Source: a virus (taxonomy: Duplodnaviria; Heunggongvirae; Uroviricota; Caudoviricetes). From it: 15,809 nt of DNA. Below, in pieces: positions 7,499 through 15,433 of this stretch. The translations under genes were made by a program, and so were the position numbers. The notes under the pieces are model-generated. The model searched no databases and was not told the DNA's origin. It saw only the letters and a program-made list of their open reading frames with translations. Position 1 is the stretch's first letter. Every line of letters starts with the position of its first letter. The stretch lies in IMG/VR virus record IMGVR_UViG_2537561934_000016; one strand, 5' to 3'.

Positions 7499-10342
7499 AT
7501 GCACCCGTGCGGAGCAGTCGGCCAGCGTGGTGCTCTGGGAACCCATGCGACTGATGCTGCAGGCTCAGCACGTGCAGCCAGCACATCAGCCGGGCAGGCC
7601 GCGACGTCGGCTCAGTCAGCGTCTTCCAGCGCAGGAACGGCATCAACAAAGGCTACTGAAGCATCAAAAAGTGCTGCCGCTGCAGAGTCCTCAAAAAGCG
7701 CGGCGGCTACCAGTGCCGGTGCGGCGAAAACGTCAGAAACGAATGCTGCAGCGTCACAAAAATCTGCAGCCACTTCTGCATCCACCGCGACCACGAAAGC
7801 GTCAGAAGCTGCCACCTCAGCCCGGGATGCGGCGGCCTCAAAAGAGGCAGCGAAATCATCAGAAACGAGCGCAGCCTCGAGCGCCAGTAGTGCAGCCTCT
7901 TCGGCAACGGCGGCAGGAAATTCCGCGAAGGCCGCAAAAACGTCTGAGACGAATGCGGATAACAGCGCACAGGCGGCAGCGGCCTCACAAACTGCATCGG
8001 CAAACTCCGCGACAGCAGCCAAAAAATCAGAAACCAACGCGAAAAATAGCGAGGCAGCAGCAAAGAGCAGCGAAACTAATGCTAAATCCAGTGAAACAAA
8101 CGCGGCGAAATCTGCAGCGGACGCACTTAATTATCGCAACCAGGCACAATCCGTTGTTGGTAACAATATTGGTCTTGGTGAAGTTGCTATGACCTGCACT
8201 GATATCTCTGTTGAGCCATCAGGTTATATTGGATTTATCAGGATTTACATCTCAGCGAAAGGTTATCCATCAGTAGCGTCTAGTGCCGGGGATAATCTTA
8301 TTTCTGGTTATATAGTTAGATCAGAAGTGTCAACAAAAAGATATTCCGGTCTATTTGTTGGTTCAGATACAAAATCATTGTATTCGTACATTTACAGCCA
8401 AAGTTCTGGCCCGCAATGGATACGTCATACCCGCAGAGATGAATTAAGCCGCTTTGGTCAAAATGAATCAACAACTCGTATGTATGGTCCAACTGGTGAT
8501 CGTTTCTTTGAAATCCATACTAACGGGAGTTGGGGGGTTTATGATTCTTCTTCTGGACAATGGTCTCCGTTAGGTTTAGCCCAGGGTGGTACTGGTGGAA
8601 GAACTATCGAGCAAGCACGTGCGAACTTGCGGGTAATGTATGAGCAAAAAGCTGGCCTTGCTAATACTGACCTAAACACCCTTACCGGTGAATATTCTGG
8701 TTTCTATCAACAACCAACGAGCGCTTACGCAACAGAAGAATTAAATTACCCAATCGGTCTGGCGGGCGCTTTAATAGTGCTCCAAACGAGAGCCAACACT
8801 GCTTCTTCCTGCGTTCAGGTGTACCACCCTTATAATAATCCGGGAATTACTTATAGACGAATATATGAAGGAGGTAGCGGTACCTGGTCTGAATGGAAGA
8901 GAGATGTATCAACAGAAAGGGTTGAAGAGGGAAAAGAAACAACTTACGTATATTCTACGTATTCTTCAGGCGCACCACGCTTACAGGTTTCCAAATCTGG
9001 TTTGTGGGGTTGTCATAATGGCACTGGCTGGTTGCCATTAGCTGTTGGGCAAGGAGGTACAGGTGCGACAACAGTAGAAGATGCGCGAAACAACTTAAGT
9101 CTTGGCGAAAGTAGCGCAGTTAAATTTAAAAACCTTACTTTAACCGAAGCGCTCGACACGACATTAGGACTGCTTACAAAAACAGGACGAGACTGGAACG
9201 CTCAGCATACTGATAACGTCGACAAATTTAGACCAATTGCAGGCAGTACAAACGGCCCGGCAGGCTCTATGGTTCTTGGCGGCATTCATGTTCAATTTAG
9301 TAAAAATTATGCTGTGCAGTTCGGAGGCCGCAATTCCGGTTTTTGGGGAAGAACAATTGAAAATGGAACGACGCAGGAATGGAAGAAATTACTAACAGTA
9401 GACGATCTCAATTCATCTACCGCTCTTGCTGTCAGGTCATTAACCACATCTAACCCGATAAAATCTGGCGGAGGGCGGATTGATGTCCTTGGAAGCACGT
9501 CAGACTATAGCAAAATGGATTGCTTTGTACGTGGGTTTGATAGCACCGGTAATTCTCTCGCGTGGGCGTTGGGTTCATCAGTCGGCGTAAGTAAGATGCT
9601 GTCGCTAAAAAATTTCTTTAGCGGAGCTGAGATACTGCTAAATGGTAATGACGGCGCGGTTCAACTCAAAACAGGTGCTGTTAACGGTGCTAAAGCGCAG
9701 GCGCTCACTATCAACAAGGATGAGGTTAACTCAACTGTTGATTTAACTCTTACAAAACAAACAGGGACTGGCAATCGTTTTGTTTTACAGAACTTAGGTA
9801 ATACAGAACTACCATTTGCTGTCAAGGTGTGGGGTTCAGGTGATCGACAAAACGTTTTTGAGGTTGGAACGTCTGCCGCGTATCTGTTTTATGCTCAAAA
9901 AACATCGTCAGGTCAGCTGTTTGATGTAAACGGTGCTATTAACTGTACAACACTGAATCAGTTATCAGACCGCGAGCTGAAAGACAATATTCAGATTATC
10001 AGTGACGCAACCGAAGCTATCCGTAAAATGAACGGGTACACCTACACACTTAAGGAAAACGGACTGCCTTACGCTGGTGTTATTGCACAGGAAGCAATGG
10101 AGGCAATACCGGAAGCGGTAGGCTCATTCACTCATTACGGTAAAGAGTTGCAGGGACCAACGGTTGACGGCAATGAATTACGTGAAGAAACACGTTATCT
10201 GAATGTTGACTACGCCGCCGTGACGGGCTTACTTGTTCAGGTCGCCCGTGAAACAGATGATCGCGTTACCGCGCTGGAAGAAGAAAACGCAGAATTAAAA
10301 CAAAGATTATCTGCAATTGAGGCGGCGCTTGCCTCTAAATAA
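7499..10342 (+). CDS. stf: Side tail fibre (Stf-like) protein, N-terminally truncated, with C-terminal S74 intramolecular-chaperone domain, 947 aa
   Basis: Residues from about 15 onward (ATDAAGSARAASTSAGQAATSAQ ... AAATSAGAAKTSETNAAASQKSAATSAS) match an internal region of lambda Stf as I recall it. The C-terminal part begins with the S74 autoproteolysis signature SDRELKDNIQ (Ser codon at 9965-9967) and ends in a coiled coil. The frame opens 1 nt after a TGA. Confidence 0.8.
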   Translation: MHPCGAVGQRGALGTHATDAAGSARAASTSAGQAATSAQSASSSAGTASTKATEASKSAAAAESSKSAAATSAGAAKTSETNAAASQKSAATSASTATTKASEAATSARDAAASKEAAKSSETSAASSASSAASSATAAGNSAKAAKTSETNADNSAQAAAASQTASANSATAAKKSETNAKNSEAAAKSSETNAKSSETNAAKSAADALNYRNQAQSVVGNNIGLGEVAMTCTDISVEPSGYIGFIRIYISAKGYPSVASSAGDNLISGYIVRSEVSTKRYSGLFVGSDTKSLYSYIYSQSSGPQWIRHTRRDELSRFGQNESTTRMYGPTGDRFFEIHTNGSWGVYDSSSGQWSPLGLAQGGTGGRTIEQARANLRVMYEQKAGLANTDLNTLTGEYSGFYQQPTSAYATEELNYPIGLAGALIVLQTRANTASSCVQVYHPYNNPGITYRRIYEGGSGTWSEWKRDVSTERVEEGKETTYVYSTYSSGAPRLQVSKSGLWGCHNGTGWLPLAVGQGGTGATTVEDARNNLSLGESSAVKFKNLTLTEALDTTLGLLTKTGRDWNAQHTDNVDKFRPIAGSTNGPAGSMVLGGIHVQFSKNYAVQFGGRNSGFWGRTIENGTTQEWKKLLTVDDLNSSTALAVRSLTTSNPIKSGGGRIDVLGSTSDYSKMDCFVRGFDSTGNSLAWALGSSVGVSKMLSLKNFFSGAEILLNGNDGAVQLKTGAVNGAKAQALTINKDEVNSTVDLTLTKQTGTGNRFVLQNLGNTELPFAVKVWGSGDRQNVFEVGTSAAYLFYAQKTSSGQLFDVNGAINCTTLNQLSDRELKDNIQIISDATEAIRKMNGYTYTLKENGLPYAGVIAQEAMEAIPEAVGSFTHYGKELQGPTVDGNELREETRYLNVDYAAVTGLLVQVARETDDRVTALEEENAELKQRLSAIEAALASK
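7540..8110 (+). repeat. Ala/Ser/Thr-rich degenerate tandem repeats inside the tail-fibre gene
   Basis: Repeated units of the form AAKTSETNA / AAKSSETNAKSSETNAAKSA. The GC-rich low-complexity DNA gives spurious long ORFs in other frames. Confidence 0.5.
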
Positions 10343-10384: not shown

Positions 10385-10672
10385 ATGGGTATAACACCTT
10401 TCCTTCATGCACTTTGTGCTGTGGCTGCGCAGATACTGGTGGGGCTTTTTACCGGAAACTGGGTTTACGGAGCGATAGCCAGTTGTACGTTCTTCATTGC
10501 GGGCGAACACACCCAAGCATAATATCGCTGGATTGAAATGTTCGGGCATGGCAAGCGGATTAACATGCCGTGGTGGGGCGGTTTTGATCCACGCGCATGG
10601 GATGTGGCAAGCCTGATGGATTTTGCTGTGCCGATGGTAGCGTGTCTTCTGATCTGGCTGTTGATCCGTTGA
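10385..10672 (+). pseudogene. Small hydrophobic protein gene interrupted by one in-frame TAA (45 aa, stop, 49 aa)
   Basis: ATG at 10385 with AGGA 5 nt upstream. Translation MGITPFLHALCAVAAQILVGLFTGNWVYGAIASCTFFIAGEHTQA, then TAA at 10520-10522, then in the same frame YRWIEMFGHGKRINMPWWGGFDPRAWDVASLMDFAVPMVACLLIWLLIR. Below the ORF-track size cutoff. Family not recognised. Confidence 0.3.
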
Positions 10673-10729: not shown

Positions 10730-10850
10730 AAATAGTGTGTTTATTGCGATATATTTTAATGACTTAATGGATTACATATCTATGATATTCCTGAAATATC
10801 CTCTTCAAGCTCTTTTACTGATTTCGCAATTTTAAATTTAAACTTCCTCT

Positions 10851-12149
10851 CTATTTCACTATTGCTAAGTTTTTTTCCTTCTCTTTACCTATCCACATAG
10901 AAACAAGTTCTCGTTTCTGAGATATATGTAGATTGTCAAAGTTAGGTATGTATTTAAAAGTCTCCGCTCTACCTCTGCGGAGTTCATAGAAAGTTTTAAT
11001 CAAAGATTTTGGTTTTATTTCTGATGAAAGGCCGAATCGGCGGATAAGATTATTGATAGTATGATTAACAGAGCGAAGTTGAGCTGTTGAGGTTATTTGT
11101 GAGAAGTACGATACCCATCCCAATCGTTTACCTTCAAACACACATCCCGTAATTCTGAGATTTAGTTTCCACTGACAATATGCAACAGCTCGTTCTTTAT
11201 CACGCTTACTTTTAGCTTGTAGTAGAGCGTGCCTATATGCAGTAAAAATTTTTGCTAAGGATGACTCAAATCTAAGAATGCTCTCATGTTTTATCAATAA
11301 TTCTCGATTTTCTATGTGGTATCCCAAAAAGTTAAAACTTTCATCCAAACTGCCTACTTTGGATTTTGAGTTCTCTTCATTTAATGGATGTGGGTTTAAA
11401 TTTAATGATTGAAGCTTATCAATGATATGAGAAGCTATTTTTGTTGCTTGATATTTTGGTGTTAAAATAAGAATGTCATCAACGTATCGCATGTACCATA
11501 TGTCATGCATTTTATTGATTTCATCATCGAAATTAGATAGTGATATTTCAGCTAAAATGTTTGATATCGCTAATCCCTGAGGTACTCCTCTGGTATTATT
11601 AGGGATACCTTTGCTTCCTGTGGTTCCACTTACAGTAGGCACGATTAATGATGATGTTATTAACTGTCTAATTTCTTTTTTTCTAATTTTATTTTTTATT
11701 GCATTAATTATCAATTTATGTTCAATTGAAGGATAGAAACTTTTAAGATCTATTTTTGCATATTCAGCATATAGACTGTTGTTTAATGCTTCTTTCAATG
11801 AGTCAATTACTGTATGTGGTAGTTTTAATCTGGACTTAGGATATATTTCCGTAAGGCATTCACAGAGAGCTCTAAGAGTAATTCTGTCCCTAGCAGTTGG
11901 TATGGAAATCTGTCTGGGTGTAGAGTTAGCGCCTTTAGATATTAATTTTTCTTTATATGCTGTAAATTTGTAATTGCCAGAATTAACCTTTTCAAAAATG
12001 AAAGTGATCTCATTTTTTATTGTCAAATCAAGTTTTGATGGGCGAATCCGATCTATGCCAATCGCTCCTGATTCTTTGATTTTTTCAGAGTATACTTTTA
12101 GAAGATTTTTTTTCGAGAATGACTTTTTAAAAATTCTGCTTGCAGTCAT
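10851..12149 (-). CDS. Reverse transcriptase (defence-associated Abi/UG/retron-like RT), about 432 aa
   Basis: RT motifs are readable in the translation: IPTARDRITLRAL, GVPQGLAISNILAEISLSNFDDEI, catalytic YMRYVDDILIL (YVDD) and FNFLGYHI, followed by a roughly 130-aa C-terminal extension. The track start at 12155 is TTG; the first ATG is at 12149. The start overlaps the 3' end of the upstream membrane-protein gene by 23 nt. Strongly AT-rich. Confidence 0.85.
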   Translation of the reverse strand: MTASRIFKKSFSKKNLLKVYSEKIKESGAIGIDRIRPSKLDLTIKNEITFIFEKVNSGNYKFTAYKEKLISKGANSTPRQISIPTARDRITLRALCECLTEIYPKSRLKLPHTVIDSLKEALNNSLYAEYAKIDLKSFYPSIEHKLIINAIKNKIRKKEIRQLITSSLIVPTVSGTTGSKGIPNNTRGVPQGLAISNILAEISLSNFDDEINKMHDIWYMRYVDDILILTPKYQATKIASHIIDKLQSLNLNPHPLNEENSKSKVGSLDESFNFLGYHIENRELLIKHESILRFESSLAKIFTAYRHALLQAKSKRDKERAVAYCQWKLNLRITGCVFEGKRLGWVSYFSQITSTAQLRSVNHTINNLIRRFGLSSEIKPKSLIKTFYELRRGRAETFKYIPNFDNLHISQKRELVSMWIGKEKEKNLAIVK

Positions 12150-12678
12150 AGTCAATCCAAAGATATATTAATGGGAGTATATAAAGTGCGGCAGTAATAA
12201 ATATTCGAAGTAATATCCATAAAATAACAATTATTTTTTCTTTTTGTGTGGGGATCCTCGTCTTAAGTCCAACTTGAGTTACCCTTGAAATTTTATCATC
12301 TATGTCACGGTGATTCTCAACCTCATTGAGCAAATTAAAATATTTTTCTTTCTGTTCAAGAGATAACTGTTGACTGGTGGTAATGTCAAAATAGAGTCGC
12401 TGTAGTGCAATATAATTCCTTCTCATGGCTATTGCTCGACCACGAAAATCTAGGTTAGATACGATCAGAGAAATACCCAGTAGAGCCACTGAAAGTATCG
12501 CCGCAACGACATCTGTATTATCTCCTAGAACCTTTGGAAATCGCAACGTTACAATTGAAAGTACCGCACTCAATATAGCATACCAAACGAGGATAAATTG
12601 AGAGTGTTTTTCAAGCCATTCTAGTCGATGGTGCGCTTGGATACGTGCTTTATATGTAAACCAAATATTGTCATGCAT
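12127..12678 (-). CDS. Multi-pass membrane protein (SLATT-like topology by inference), 183 aa, co-operonic with the RT
   Basis: ATG (cat 12676-12678) with AAGGA 6 nt upstream. Hydrophobic helices ILVWYAILSAVLSIVTLRF, VVAAILSVALLGISLIVSN and IIVILWILLRIFITAALYILPLIYLWI. The 3' end overlaps the RT start. Confidence 0.7.
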   Translation of the reverse strand: MHDNIWFTYKARIQAHHRLEWLEKHSQFILVWYAILSAVLSIVTLRFPKVLGDNTDVVAAILSVALLGISLIVSNLDFRGRAIAMRRNYIALQRLYFDITTSQQLSLEQKEKYFNLLNEVENHRDIDDKISRVTQVGLKTRIPTQKEKIIVILWILLRIFITAALYILPLIYLWIDYDCKQNF

Positions 12679-12689
12679 AAAAGATCCTT

Positions 12690-12832
12690 TTTAAAAGCGG
12701 AAGGGGCAGGATATATTGGAACCGTTGAACATCCTGCCCGGCAGGATCAGTGAGCATAAGCTCAACAGTAAAATATTACTGTTCATTATCAGAGCCGCCC
12801 TTGCATGCGCAAGAGGAAAAACCTGCCCCATC
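12690..12832 (-). ncRNA. Structured 5' leader or candidate non-coding RNA upstream of the membrane-protein/RT operon
   Basis: Three copies of an 8-9 bp element in inverted orientation: GGGGCAGGAT (12703-12712), the palindrome ATCCTGCCCGGCAGGAT (12731-12747) and CCTGCCCC (12822-12829). Further local hairpins at CAGTAA-AATA-TTACTG (12765-12780) and around TTGCATGCGCAA (12801-12812). No ORF. Confidence 0.25.
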
Positions 12833-12840
12833 CCTTTGAA

Positions 12841-12869
12841 TTATTACAATTTAATGATCTTAAAGTCAA
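12841..12869 (-). promoter_or_regulatory. Candidate sigma70 promoter for the leader/membrane-protein/RT operon
   Basis: Minus strand reads TTGACT (-35; plus 12864-12869), a 17-nt spacer, then TAATAA (-10; plus 12841-12846) preceded by TG. Sequence match only. Confidence 0.3.
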
Positions 12870-12900
12870 TACAAGTGAATGGTGTCCAGAGATGATGAAC

Positions 12901-13149
12901 TTAATGAACAAACCACTCGTCAGCAGACTCCCAGGTATCTTTCAGAGTCTCCTGAACAAAAGTTTTAGCTGAATCTTTATCAGCGGTGCGCGTAACAGAA
13001 AGGCCATCGTTGCTGGTGGCTTTTACGATCACTTCTACATCGTCATAACGTTTACTGATGCGTCGGGTTAATTCTTCCTTTAACGCATCCACAGCACCGG
13101 TTGGCATTTTAGTCATTTTTTCTTTGGCTATGCAGATTTCAATACGCAT
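12901..13149 (-). CDS. DinI-family (DNA-damage-inducible protein I-like) protein, 82 aa
   Basis: Translation [31 protein letters not shown] ... [11 protein letters not shown] matches the remembered DinI pattern (MRIEVTIAK ... ETWESADDWFV). AGGGGA 6 nt upstream of the ATG. Two LexA boxes lie directly upstream. Confidence 0.8.
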
Positions 13150-13161
13150 AAAAGTCCCCTA

Positions 13162-13181
13162 CACTGTATTTGTATACAGTA
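13162..13181. promoter_or_regulatory. LexA (SOS) box 1
   Basis: CACTGTATTTGTATACAGTA fits the CTGT-N8-ACAG consensus (TACTGTATATATATACAGTA) with an AT-rich core, 13-32 nt upstream of the dinI-like start. Confidence 0.6.
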
Positions 13182-14395: not shown

Positions 14396-15433
14396 ATGCA
14401 CGATAATCCTGAAACACAGAAAACTAATCAAACCAGCGTGATGCCTGAAAAAACTGGCGCTTACTGGAGTTCTCGGTTTAGCATTGCTCCTATGCTCGAC
14501 TGGACGGACAGACATTGCCGCTATTTCTTGCGTCTGCTTTCCCGCAATACGTTGCTGTATACCGAAATGGTGACCACAGGGGCGATTATTCACGGTAAAG
14601 GTGATTACCTGGCGTACAGTGAAGAAGAACATCCGGTAGCGTTGCAACTCGGCGGTAGCGATCCGGCGGCGCTGGCACAGTGTGCGAAGCTGGCAGAAGC
14701 GCGTGGATATGATGAGATCAACCTGAATGTCGGCTGCCCGTCTGACCGGGTGCAGAACGGCATGTTTGGTGCGTGTCTGATGGGTAATGCGCAGCTGGTT
14801 GCCGACTGCGTGAAAGCGATGCGCGATGTGGTGTCGATTCCAGTGACGGTGAAAACGCGTATTGGCATCGATGACCAGGACAGCTATGAATTTCTCTGCG
14901 ATTTCATCAACACCGTTTCCGGCAAAGGCGAGTGTGAGATGTTTATCATCCACGCACGTAAAGCCTGGCTTTCGGGGTTAAGCCCGAAAGAAAACCGTGA
15001 AATCCCGCCGCTCGATTATCCGCGTGTGTATCAACTGAAGCGTGACTTTCCGCATCTGACAATGTCGATTAACGGTGGTATCAAGTCGCTGGAAGAGGCC
15101 AAAGCACACCTGCAACATATGGATGGCGTGATGGTCGGGCGCGAGGCGTATCAGAATCCGGGTATTCTGGCGGCGGTAGACCGGGAGATCTTTGGTTCCT
15201 CGGATACCGATGCCGATCCAGTGGCGGTAGTGCGCGCCATGTATCCGTACATTGAGCGTGAACTCAGCCAGGGGACGTATCTCGGCCATATTACCCGGCA
15301 TATGTTGGGCTTGTTCCAGGGTATTCCTGGCGCGCGGCAGTGGCGGCGTTATTTAAGTGAAAATGCCCATAAAGCGGGTGCAGACATTAATGTGCTGGAA
15401 CACGCGCTCAAACTGGTGGCGGATAAGCGTTAA
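14396..15433 (+). CDS. dusA: tRNA-dihydrouridine(20/20a) synthase DusA, 345 aa
   Basis: Translation carries the Dus family core ([19 protein letters not shown] ... [13 protein letters not shown] ... catalytic region) and ends ... LKLVADKR, as in E. coli DusA. An alternative in-frame start is at 14441 (MPEKTG). The 5' end may be element-supplied. Confidence 0.9.

Follow-up and report, generated by a model that had tools for sequence, protein, structure and literature searches.

The gap upstream of a prophage SLATT-reverse transcriptase operon very probably encodes a DRT10 (UG17) template RNA

Identity of the RNA and layout of the locus

The structured gap between a DinI-like gene and a membrane protein-reverse transcriptase (RT) operon in the viral record IMGVR_UViG_2537561934_000016 very probably encodes the noncoding RNA (ncRNA) of a DRT10 (UG17) anti-phage system, which is composed of an ncRNA, a SLATT membrane effector and an RT. 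The window is the whole stretch of 15,809 nt that was analyzed, and the gap spans 12679-12900 within it. The ncRNA (137 nt, 12697..12833, minus strand) is identical to the Eco3DRT10 ncRNA at 134 of 137 nt, and the three differing positions are 25, 110 and 112. A UG17 RT together with a SLATT_5 protein makes up the DRT10 phage-defence system (Tang 2025, PMC12632851; Sanchez-Nieto 2026, bioRxiv 10.64898/2026.04.29.721553; Ramirez 2026, bioRxiv 10.64898/2026.06.29.735271). In Eco3DRT10, a 137-nt ncRNA lies upstream of SLATT and carries an A-B-A' template downstream of stem-loop 5 (SL5), and DNA synthesis is primed from Ser456 (Tang 2025, PMC12632851). Like the locus studied here, Eco3DRT10 is an E. 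coli prophage locus with an ncRNA, a SLATT_5 gene and a UG17 RT (PMC12632851; 10.64898/2026.06.29.735271). The window copy is a near-identical allele of the RNA of an already described system, paired with a frameshifted RT.

We set the ncRNA boundaries by homology to the RIP-seq-defined Eco3DRT10 species, such that Eco3 position n equals 12834 minus the window coordinate. With this conversion the published Eco3 numbering (G86, G104, U105-U106, C107, C116, A120-U123) fits the window RNA exactly. The link to Eco3 was made through its RT accession, OKX54664.1. E. coli K_EC180 encodes an identical RT, and the K_EC180 locus, whose ncRNA is the one that shares 134 of 137 nt with the window RNA, bears the published Eco3 template, CAAUGAUUC-CAAU. 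An earlier note, made by reading the sequence, had proposed that the gap could specify an RT template or DRT-type ncRNA, and that proposal was correct: the RNA is a DRT10/UG17 template RNA. Its identity accounts fully for the structured gap, and such RNAs can be spotted by reading sequence alone.

The operon and the ncRNA are on the minus strand. As the earlier note described, a DinI-like gene (13149-12901) is followed by SLATT and then by the RT gene, all on that strand. The SLATT_5 gene (12127..12678) encodes a two-transmembrane effector of 183 aa (PADLOC RTasSLATT, E=1.5e-56; Pfam SLATT_5, E=1.3e-28; NCBIfam SLATT_5, E=8.5e-40), and its reading frame overlaps that of the UG17/DRT10 RT gene (10780..12149, ATG at 12149) by 23 nt. 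The gap comes immediately after the stop codon of the dinI-like gene, at the prophage edge. The gap shows no sign of genes, in keeping with the earlier reading, although it is not strictly free of open reading frames: mechanical ORFs occur on the plus strand at 12716-12895 (59 aa) and 12805-12972 (55 aa).

The RT assignment bears directly on another option in the earlier note, a retron msr/msd RNA. In retrons the RT primes from the 2'-OH of a conserved G and makes a branched multicopy single-stranded DNA, and here, too, a structured RNA that could act as RT template adjoins a bacterial RT in a prophage. There is even a weak match of the RT to the NCBIfam model retron_St85 (E=5.6e-16). However, this match falls far short of the model's cut-off (58.7 vs 235 bits), whereas the PADLOC RT_UG17 profile matches with 500.7 bits (E=7.9e-151) over profile positions 1-402 of 429, and the next best PADLOC profile, Drt3a, reaches 128 bits. 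The RNA has a closed five-stem fold with a 9-nt internal template rather than an msr/msd flanked by a1/a2 repeats, and in DRT10 the primer is a protein residue, a C-terminal Ser, and not RNA (Tang 2025, PMC12632851). Retrons also differ from DRT10 in RT clade, in their 2'-5' branch priming and in yielding a single msDNA rather than a tandem repeat. A search of the whole window against Rfam at gathering thresholds found no match to a retron or to any other family, and relaxing the thresholds over 12600-12950 brought up nothing beyond chance matches (SNORD43 and MEG8). We therefore consider a retron RNA exceedingly improbable. In a sequence search of a local copy of the PDB, the intact RT had no DRT10 entry among its matches; the best were group II intron RTs, retron-type RTs (5hhj, 5hhl) and Drt3a.

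The candidate sigma70 promoter that the earlier note placed just upstream of the structured region was recovered at 12840..12869 (minus strand). It has a -35 element TTGACT (12869-12864), an 18-nt spacer ending in TG and a -10 element AATAAT (12845-12840), and it scores 10/12 in a consensus scan. The ncRNA would start at the G at 12833, 7 nt downstream of the -10 element. All homologues, E. coli to Pseudomonas, have a -10-like element whose end lies 6-10 nt upstream of SL1. No terminator separates the ncRNA from SLATT, and transcripts may run on into the operon; the ncRNA may then double as the leader portion of the operon mRNA, with a possible role in cis.

Fold, covariation and alternative pairings

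The RNA is predicted to form five stem-loops, in which the closing stem SL1 encloses SL2 to SL5, with two single-stranded loops, A and B, in between. The 5' strand of SL1, GGAUGGGGCAGG (12822..12833), pairs with the 3' strand, CCUGCCCCUUCC (12699..12710), and compensatory changes across homologues occur at 10 of its 12 pairs. SL2 (CUCUUGC-GCAU-GCAAGGG, 12798..12815) is paired in 98.5-98.9% of alignment cells, with 3-4 double-change pairs; its position 25 is C in the window and U in Eco3. Loop A, CGGCUCUGAUAAUG (12784..12797), is almost invariant among 19 homologues. SL3 (AACAGUAA-UAUU-UUACUGUU, 12764..12783) is AU-rich (25% GC), matching the description of Eco3, and is 98-100% paired with compensatory changes. 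SL4 (GAGC-UUAU-GCUC, 12752..12763) is 92-100% paired, with 2-3 double-change pairs. SL5 (G-AUCCUGC-CGG-GCAGGAU-G, 12730..12748), the 5' template-boundary hairpin, is paired in 100% of cells in homologues; its 19-nt span and flanking Gs are as in Eco3, and the flanking G.G pair corresponds to Eco3 G86.G104.

On its sense (minus) strand, the gap has a folding energy of -66.6 kcal/mol, compared with -50.6 +/- 4.2 for shuffled sequences (z = -3.8; 0 of 200 shuffles as good). The plus strand was rejected as the functional strand: its fold is weaker (z = -3.1 vs -3.8) and it is antisense to the operon. Two comparative results argue for the five-stem fold. First, a structure-blind MAFFT alignment of 19 sequences has 96.3% of cells paired and double changes at 19 of 38 pairs; sliding the partners on this alignment, as a control, left 45-57% of cells paired. 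Second, a covariance model built from the homologues has a single match in the window (12695-12836, minus strand, 139 bits, E=3e-36) and finds one copy upstream of SLATT in each of 29 sources, 8 of them loci outside the seed, with 100-145 bits. The model alignment of these 29 loci, which range from E. coli to Pseudomonas, shows pairing in 97.3% of its cells and double changes at 21 of 34 pairs. The related loci were gathered partly by an alignment-based profile scan of viral contigs, which widened their diversity. The folding and covariance analysis that the earlier note had suggested thus finds a conserved five-stem structure, and the window adds comparative support for this fold across genera.

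The same data weigh on whether the repeats are incidental, i.e., leftover prophage-end sequence or the terminator of the dinI-like gene, with no RNA function. The position next to the dinI-like gene and the prophage edge would suit such an origin, but the sense strand has no terminator-like site, and the fold is kept with compensatory changes beside SLATT-RT in genera that lack dinI. We give this explanation almost no credence.

The elements that first drew attention to the gap are real. The earlier note had pointed to three complementary GGGGCAGG/CCTGCCCC elements, GGGGCAGGAT (12703-12712), the palindrome ATCCTGCCCGGCAGGAT (12731-12747) and CCTGCCCC (12822-12829), and to two further hairpins; all are present where it placed them. 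GGGGCAGG occurs twice in the window, both times inside the gap (expected 0.38; 2 matches were reached by 9 of 200 shuffles). On the sense strand, CCTGCCCC belongs to the 5' strand of SL1 and GGGGCAGGAT to its 3' strand, and the palindrome is SL5. A repeat search found the corresponding inverted repeat 12699-12710/12822-12833 (12 nt, 92% complementary), the palindrome arms 12731-12738/12740-12747 and the hairpin 12764-12771/12776-12783.

The earlier note had also suggested that these three elements pair in alternative ways. One version of this idea is a cis-acting attenuator or riboswitch-like leader, in which the elements form mutually exclusive helices that switch transcription or translation of SLATT-RT. 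Several features make the idea reasonable. The repeat search shows 12704-12712 to be perfectly complementary to 12731-12739 over 9 nt, and when the entire 222-nt gap is folded, the minimum-energy structure contains the alternative pairings. In addition, the structure ends approximately 18 nt before the SLATT start codon, and no separate promoter or terminator was found between them. However, the alternative helices do not covary: they are paired in 73.5% of cells, compared with 71.7% in shuffles, they contain gaps in most homologues, and their count of double-change pairs was reached by 260 of 500 shuffles. The three-way match, which comes from an extended SL5, is limited to the enteric clade; in Photorhabdus, Buttiauxella, Pseudomonas and Stutzerimonas, SL5 is short, AUCC(C)/(G)GGAU. 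Within the 137-nt RNA, thermodynamics gives the alternative pairs a probability of ~0.02, compared with ~0.97 for SL1 and SL5, which are conserved together. Cryo-EM of Eco3DRT10, with an RT:RNA ratio of 2:1, likewise has SL1 and SL5 formed together, along with the G86.G104 pair, and an Eco3 mutant with SL5 inverted retains defence (Ramirez 2026, bioRxiv 10.64898/2026.06.29.735271). Mutually exclusive helices are thus not conserved across homologues, and we regard an attenuator as very unlikely.

Template, predicted repeat and relation to other systems

Within the DRT10 RNA, loop B has the A-B-A' layout of a reiterated template, UU-CAACGGUUC-CAAU-AUAU. Reading along the RNA, the order is SL5, G, UU, CAAC-GGUUC-CAAU, AUAU, SL1. 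The A-B template CAACGGUUC (12719..12727) corresponds to Eco3 positions 107-115, the same place and length as the Eco3 template, and is followed by the A' realignment segment CAAU (12715..12718; Eco3 116-119). The flanking linkers, UU (12729-12728) on the 5' side and AUAU (12714-12711) on the 3' side, equal in length those of Eco3, where they are U105-U106 and A120-U123 (Ramirez 2026, bioRxiv 10.64898/2026.06.29.735271). Five stem-loops, the G.G at the base of SL5, linkers of 2 nt and 4 nt, a 9-nt template and a CAAU A' segment are common to the two RNAs.

In contrast, the templates differ at positions 110 and 112 (CAACGGUUC in the window vs CAAUGAUUC in Eco3). The cDNA repeat predicted for the window allele is 5'-GAACCGTTG-3', the plus-strand sequence at 12719..12727, compared with GAATCATTG for Eco3. 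The window is thus a natural allele whose template departs from the studied one at two positions and for which a different repeat is predicted. The homology between A and A' is 3 nt in the window (CAAC vs CAAU) and 4 nt in Eco3, and 3 nt has been reported to be enough for DRT10 (Tang et al. 2025, PMC12632851). A CAA...CAA pattern is found in 28 of 29 homologues, though B varies; the exception, the most divergent locus, has UAAA...CAAA. Loop B can also be read in another register, GUUC-AACG-GUUC, with an 8-nt period and the corresponding repeat CGTTGAAC. The published geometry, in which the boundary is measured from SL5 with a 2-nt linker, favours the 9-nt register.

We postulate that the RNA would act as follows. 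Transcription from its own sigma70 promoter, starting at approximately 12833, would produce an ncRNA that is bound by two RT monomers. The monomer at loop B would prime DNA synthesis with the hydroxyl of Ser456 at its own C terminus and copy the 9-nt template until it reaches the boundary that SL5 sets. Re-annealing of the new DNA end to the downstream A' (CAA) would then let the cycle repeat, much as in telomerase, to give a kilobase-long single-stranded tandem repeat, the synthesis of which would be required for SLATT-dependent defence. These steps were shown for Eco3DRT10, and for the window locus we infer them from the 134/137 nt identity; expression, RNA ends, RT binding and cDNA at this locus would likewise follow the Eco3 allele. 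In Eco3DRT10, tandem-repeat cDNA depends on the RT, and phage defence needs all three parts (Tang 2025, PMC12632851). Loop A of Eco3 occupies the active site of the second RT monomer and gives only short abortive cDNA, and RT residues R371, K385 and Y388 have been reported (Ramirez 2026, bioRxiv 10.64898/2026.06.29.735271).

Related systems share parts of this design. UG17-A of Escherichia sp. E3659 is the same kind of system with the same gene order, and its ncRNA (~143 nt) is likewise structured, has its own promoter and lies upstream of SLATT; its basal stem SL1 is essential, and copies of a short direct repeat border the template in its loop (Sanchez-Nieto et al. 2026, bioRxiv 10.64898/2026.04.29.721553). 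Compared by description, it is a different allele, with a 7-nt repeat, AGTAATA, made from ACUUAUUACU, and with six stem-loops in its predicted fold. DRT9 (UG28), compared from papers alone, also has a Class 2 UG RT, a structured ncRNA with an internal-loop template and protein priming, and the DRT9 and DRT10 ncRNA folds have been called similar (Tang et al. 2025, PMC12632851). However, DRT9 uses a poly-U template to make a poly-dA homopolymer and is primed from tyrosine, whereas DRT10 has a mixed 9-nt template and A-B-A' realignment. An evolutionary relationship to telomerase has been proposed for DRT10, which was described recently. In telomerase RNA, too, the template is short and internal, its 5' boundary is set by a structured element, and an alignment segment on the 3' side resets the product for the next repeat; the likeness is functional, and we do not claim homology of RNA sequence or structure. 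DRT10 differs in using a protein Ser as primer where telomerase uses a chromosome end, in its ratio of two RTs to one RNA and in serving phage defence. The DRT10 RNA is missing from Rfam 15, and none of the 188 complete E. coli genomes with a copy annotates it; a family model would help in annotating such loci.

Frameshift in the reverse transcriptase gene

The window RT differs from Eco3 RT in lacking Ser456. Intact alleles have a run of eight A's (A8) where the window has A7 (10870..10876, minus strand), as seen by comparison of loci. The 1-nt deletion breaks the ancestral 456-codon frame; the present ORF ends at 10851 and encodes 432 aa, the last being ...KEKEKNLAIVK. The final 24 residues, comprising the C-terminal helix and the priming Ser456, are thereby removed, and the Ser456 tail found in all homologues, ...KKLSNSEIERKFKFKIAKSVKELEEDISGIS, can be read only in the -1 frame.

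Before the frameshift, five residues differ between the window RT and Eco3 RT. R371, K385, Y388 and S456 (Eco3 numbering) are invariant in a nine-protein alignment, which contains the intact AR434 allele and 8 homologues but not the frameshifted window RT; the AR434/chi7122 RT allele is CCK49377.1, and E. coli AR434 (NZ_CP029122) has the same ncRNA sequence as the window. R371, K385 and Y388, which anchor SL5/SL1, lie upstream of the frameshift, where the window translation matches the AR434 allele.

Without Ser456, the window copy is probably inactive. Judging from the sequence, the RNA is probably still made, and repeat synthesis and defence have probably been lost unless slippage restores the frame. 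The frameshift bears on the activity of the window copy and not on the identity of the ncRNA. Programmed frameshifting at GA_A_AAA_AAC was considered and rejected: the A-run is broken or shorter in related RTs, and A8 is in frame in 23 of the 26 loci scored, with A7 in the other 3. A simple mutation, or else an error in sequencing, is the likelier cause of the A7 run. An exact match to the 80-mer containing A7 was found in only 2 of 188 complete E. coli genomes.

It has some appeal to imagine that the SL1/SL5 alternative pairing is a gate that leaves only promoter-proximal transcripts competent as templates and that, together with A8/A7 slippage, tunes a toxic system. We consider this a long shot. 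Our data lend no support to selection on either feature. Both are clade-specific, and the simplest readings are coincidence for the SL1/SL5 match and loss of function for the A8/A7 change. In the enteric clade the same GGCAGG/CCUGCC is found in SL1 and SL5. Longer transcripts, e.g., from SOS-driven read-through of the dinI-like gene, are predicted by folding to adopt the alternative pairing instead of the active five-stem structure. Homopolymer frameshifts of this type, which cost the RT its priming serine, have arisen in three or more allelic backgrounds.

The DRT10 RNA upstream of SLATT

The gap between the DinI-like gene (13149-12901, minus strand; Pfam E=1.1e-19) and the SLATT gene is the already described ncRNA of the DRT10 phage-defence system, in a close allele of its best-studied example, and its structure is real and functional. 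The new details are limited to a natural template variant and a frameshifted reverse transcriptase (RT) partner. In the literature, DRT10 consists of three parts: a UG17 RT, SLATT and an ncRNA whose gene lies upstream of SLATT. SLATT_5 in the window (12678-12127, minus strand) is a 183-aa, two-transmembrane, RT-associated protein (PADLOC E=1.5e-56, Pfam E=1.3e-28, NCBIfam E=8.5e-40), and downstream of it is a 434-aa RT ORF (PADLOC RT_UG17 E=7.9e-151) within the RT gene at 12149-10780 (minus strand). As called mechanically, this ORF has a TTG start, two codons before the ATG at 12149 (region 12147-12155, minus strand). The authors of the reference system, Eco3DRT10, corrected an identical two-residue start misannotation, and S458 of the NCBI record is their S456.

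The earlier note had described three mutually complementary elements in this gap, and that observation is confirmed: GGGGCAGGAT is at 12703-12712, the palindrome ATCCTGCCCGGCAGGAT at 12731-12747 and CCTGCCCC at 12822-12829. A repeat search found a long-range inverted pair (12699-12710 with 12822-12833; 12 nt, 92% complementary) and a second that is perfect over 9 nt (12704-12712 with 12731-12739), and also listed the palindrome and an additional hairpin at 12764-12783. Both occurrences of the octamer GGGGCAGG in the 15.8 kb (0.38 expected) are inside the gap, and the gap's sense strand folds 3.8 SD better than shuffled sequence. The sigma70-like promoter suspected just upstream is present at 12869-12840 (minus strand), with TTGACT, an 18-nt spacer, and AATAAT with TG upstream of it. 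In every homologue, a -10-like element ends 6-10 nt upstream of SL1, which supports transcription starting where SL1 has its foot.

The Eco3DRT10 RNA is 137 nt, as mapped by RIP-seq, and has a large closing stem and smaller stem-loops, all of which are needed for defence (Tang et al. 2025, PMC12632851). Its template is 9 nt (CAAUGAUUC) of a 20-nt loop, and the product is kilobase-long tandem repeats of GAATCATTG, primed by the RT's own C-terminal Ser456; repeat addition requires the A-B-A' pattern CAAU-GAUUC-CAAU directly after SL5 (Tang et al. 2025, PMC12632851). Cryo-EM shows a single pseudo-symmetric RNA that carries two RT monomers; the repeats come from loop B and a short abortive product from loop A (Ramirez et al. 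2026). SL5 (G86-G104) has a basal G.G Hoogsteen pair held by R371, SL1 is held by K385 and Y388, and the template window is set by a 2-nt 5' linker (U105-U106) and a 4-nt 3' linker (A120-U123) (Ramirez et al. 2026). Independent work on another UG17-A system found a discrete ~143-nt ncRNA made from its own promoter and dependent on the basal stem SL1 (Sanchez-Nieto et al. 2026).

Reading the window RNA on the minus strand from 12833, so that Eco3 position n is 12834 minus the window coordinate, we found the same parts in order. The SL1 5' strand (GGAUGGGGCAGG) is followed by the spacer UUUUU(C), SL2 (CUCUUGC-GCAU-GCAAGGG), loop A (12784-12797, CGGCUCUGAUAAUG), SL3 (AACAGUAA-UAUU-UUACUGUU, 25% GC, as in the Eco3 description), SL4 (GAGC-UUAU-GCUC), the spacer ACU, and SL5 with its flanking Gs (G-AUCCUGC-CGG-GCAGGAU-G). 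Then come the 5' linker UU, the A-B template (12719-12727, CAACGGUUC), the A' segment CAAU, the 3' linker AUAU and the SL1 3' strand (CCUGCCCCUUCC). The published Eco3 landmarks (G86, G104, U105-U106, C107, G111, C116 and A120-U123) all fall on the correct base.

The Eco3 RT is OKX54664.1, according to the Eco3DRT10 authors, with its sequence in their Table S1. E. coli K_EC180 (L012) has an identical RT and also carries the published template CAAUGAUUC-CAAU. The window ncRNA differs from that of L012 at 3 of 137 positions (C25U, C110U and G112A, window to L012), and C25U turns a C-G pair of SL2 into U-G. Thus, the option of a DRT-type ncRNA and RT template was correct, and the retron option is unsupported, as the RT is UG17. 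The window RT matches the AR434/chi7122 allele, which is five residues from Eco3 (S21T, T49A, K105N, N124S and K300R). R371, K385, Y388 and S456 are invariant in an alignment of the intact AR434 allele and eight homologues, from which the window's frameshifted RT was left out; R371, K385 and Y388 are upstream of the frameshift, where the window translation equals the AR434 allele.

Conservation of the fold and alternative pairings

In scans of genomes and viral contigs, UG17 loci were recovered in E. coli, other enterics, Photorhabdus, Buttiauxella, Pseudomonas and Stutzerimonas; RT identity ranged from 59% to 100%, and the same RNA was upstream of SLATT at all of them. When 19 distinct sequences were aligned with MAFFT, blind to structure, 96.3% of cells in the five-stem fold were paired, with both sides changed at 19 of 38 pairs. 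Sliding the partners by 1-3 columns left 45-57% of cells paired, and none of 500 shuffles matched the observed values on four of five measures. RNAalifold independently finds SL1, SL2 and SL3. Searched with a covariance model built from this alignment, the window gave a single hit (12695-12836, minus strand; 139 bits). A further 28 loci each gave one hit upstream of SLATT (100-145 bits), and eight of these loci were outside the seed. In the covariance-model alignment, which is fitted to the model and thus biased towards the structure, the fold pairs 97.3% of cells, with compensatory changes at 21 of 34 pairs; in SL1 alone, 10 of 12 pairs covary.

RNAalifold also pairs GGCUC of loop A with the 5' arm of SL4, with only one-sided changes as support. 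Loop A hardly varies across loci ranging from E. coli to Pseudomonas and is much better conserved than loop B's productive template, in contrast to the abortive-only product of loop A in Eco3.

The three elements of the earlier note are the two strands of SL1 and SL5. They are cross-complementary because SL5 of the enteric clade has CCUGC/GCAGG, the same as inner SL1; outside this clade, the SL5 hairpin is short, AUCC(C)/(G)GGAU. The alternative pairings had suggested an attenuator-like leader, and an alternative fold is indeed favoured, but only when the entire 222-nt gap is folded. That fold would correspond to read-through transcripts, in which SL1 and SL5 are predicted to misfold. Counted across homologues, where most are gapped, the alternative pairings have 73.5% of cells paired, against 71.7% in shuffles. 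In the partition function of the 137-nt RNA, SL1 and SL5 have pair probabilities of ~0.97 and the alternatives ~0.02. The minimum-energy fold is the same five stems plus five loop A-loop B pairs, and the five-stem structure by itself comes within 1.6 kcal/mol of it. In published work, inversion of SL5 leaves Eco3 defence intact, and SL1 and SL5 are both formed in the cryo-EM structure. Because the homologue counts, the partition function and the published SL5 data all go against the alternative helices, an attenuator-type switch is unsupported. The RNA ends ~18 nt from the SLATT start codon with no terminator between them, and from this we infer that the five-stem ncRNA probably doubles as the 5' end of the operon transcript.

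Template alleles and the predicted repeat

A-B-A' (CAA, 6-8 nt, CAA) is kept in 28 of 29 copies, with variable B and periods of 9 to 11 nt; the exception is the most divergent locus, L049 (UAAA...CAAA). In the window, A and A' share three bases (CAAC vs CAAU). Published work found three bases of homology sufficient and the fourth base of A changeable, and the repeat sequence follows the template. By analogy with what has been shown for Eco3, the window RNA would scaffold two RT monomers, and the loop-B monomer would start from Ser456 opposite C116, copy positions 115 to 107 and stop at the SL5 anchor. The product would then re-align on A' (CAA) and the cycle repeat, and SLATT-dependent defence would need this synthesis. 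The template CAACGGUUC is thus predicted to give the repeat GAACCGTTG, the plus-strand sequence of 12719-12727. The same loop B also contains a competing register with an 8-nt period (GUUC-AACG-GUUC), although the fixed 2-nt spacing from SL5 favours the 9-nt reading.

Near-identical enteric DRT10 RNAs carry three template alleles: CAACGGUUC (the window, AR434 and others), CAAUGAUUC (Eco3 type) and CAACGAUUC (L035-L038); L012, L025 and L035-L038 are the loci named for this comparison. All three retain CAA...CAAU, and they predict differing cDNA repeats from otherwise almost identical systems.

The RT frameshift and the locus

The window RT ends ...MWIGKEKEKNLAIVK*, 432 aa from the corrected ATG, whereas all homologue RTs run on to ...KKLSNSEIERKFKFKIAKSVKELEEDISGIS* (454-459 aa), with an invariant serine last. 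The frameshift arises because a run of seven adenines (A7; 10870-10876, minus strand) replaces the eight (A8) of intact alleles, a 1-nt deletion. It costs the last 24 residues, the C-terminal helix and the priming Ser456, and the missing tail is still readable in the -1 frame, as far as 10780. Over the 2-kb DRT10 segment compared (10851-12900), AR434 is 100% identical to the window apart from this run, and it has A8 and a 456-aa RT. A7 may be a homopolymer sequencing error in the window's source. The A7 form is rare but recurrent: it is in 2 of 188 cassette-bearing complete E. coli genomes and 3 of 26 loci scored, and in at least three allelic backgrounds (the window; Eco3-type L031 and L051; and the 432-aa protein P0004, from 9 contigs).

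In the zero frame, the run's context GA_A_AAA_AAC is similar to a -1 slippery heptamer, which would suggest programmed frameshifting. However, the A8 run is restricted to the E. coli clade, and we therefore consider it a hotspot of mutation, not a programmed site. In Eco3, cDNA synthesis and defence are both lost with S456A and with C-terminal truncations, so the window DRT10 copy is probably inactive. An inactive copy would fit the UG17 toxicity reported in some backgrounds; UG17-A toxicity is kept in check by SbcB (Sanchez-Nieto et al. 2026).

The DRT10 cassette is in 188 of 5,426 complete E. coli genomes, chromosomal in all, and the gap has no annotation in any of the 188. The loci compared for context were the window, L011-L014 and L051-L061. 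In the window and AR434, the dinI-like/ncRNA/SLATT/RT block adjoins a dusA-specific tyrosine integrase (14307-13210, minus strand) at the end of a prophage integrated at dusA (14396-15433). Elsewhere in E. coli, the block is next to prfC or yecD/aspS without that integrase, and phage tail-fibre genes are beside it in every context. The block behaves as a prophage-end cargo module. In some of the prfC- or yecD/aspS-adjacent strains, the dinI-like gene itself is frameshifted.

A near-consensus LexA (SOS) box, TACTGTATACAAATACAGT, is at 13163-13181 (minus strand), between a TTGACA -35 and the dinI-like start codon. There is no terminator-like site between dinI and the ncRNA promoter, and SOS-induced read-through into the DRT10 locus is thus possible. 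Downstream of the RT, at ~10385-10672 (plus strand), is a short remnant of a phage ORF, which the AR434 annotation lists as a pseudogene for a hypothetical protein, interrupted by an internal stop. Beyond it, a 947-aa tail-fibre gene (7499-10342, plus strand) has a long, Ala/Ser-rich, low-complexity N-terminal region and is annotated in AR434 as pyocin-knob/S74 peptidase.
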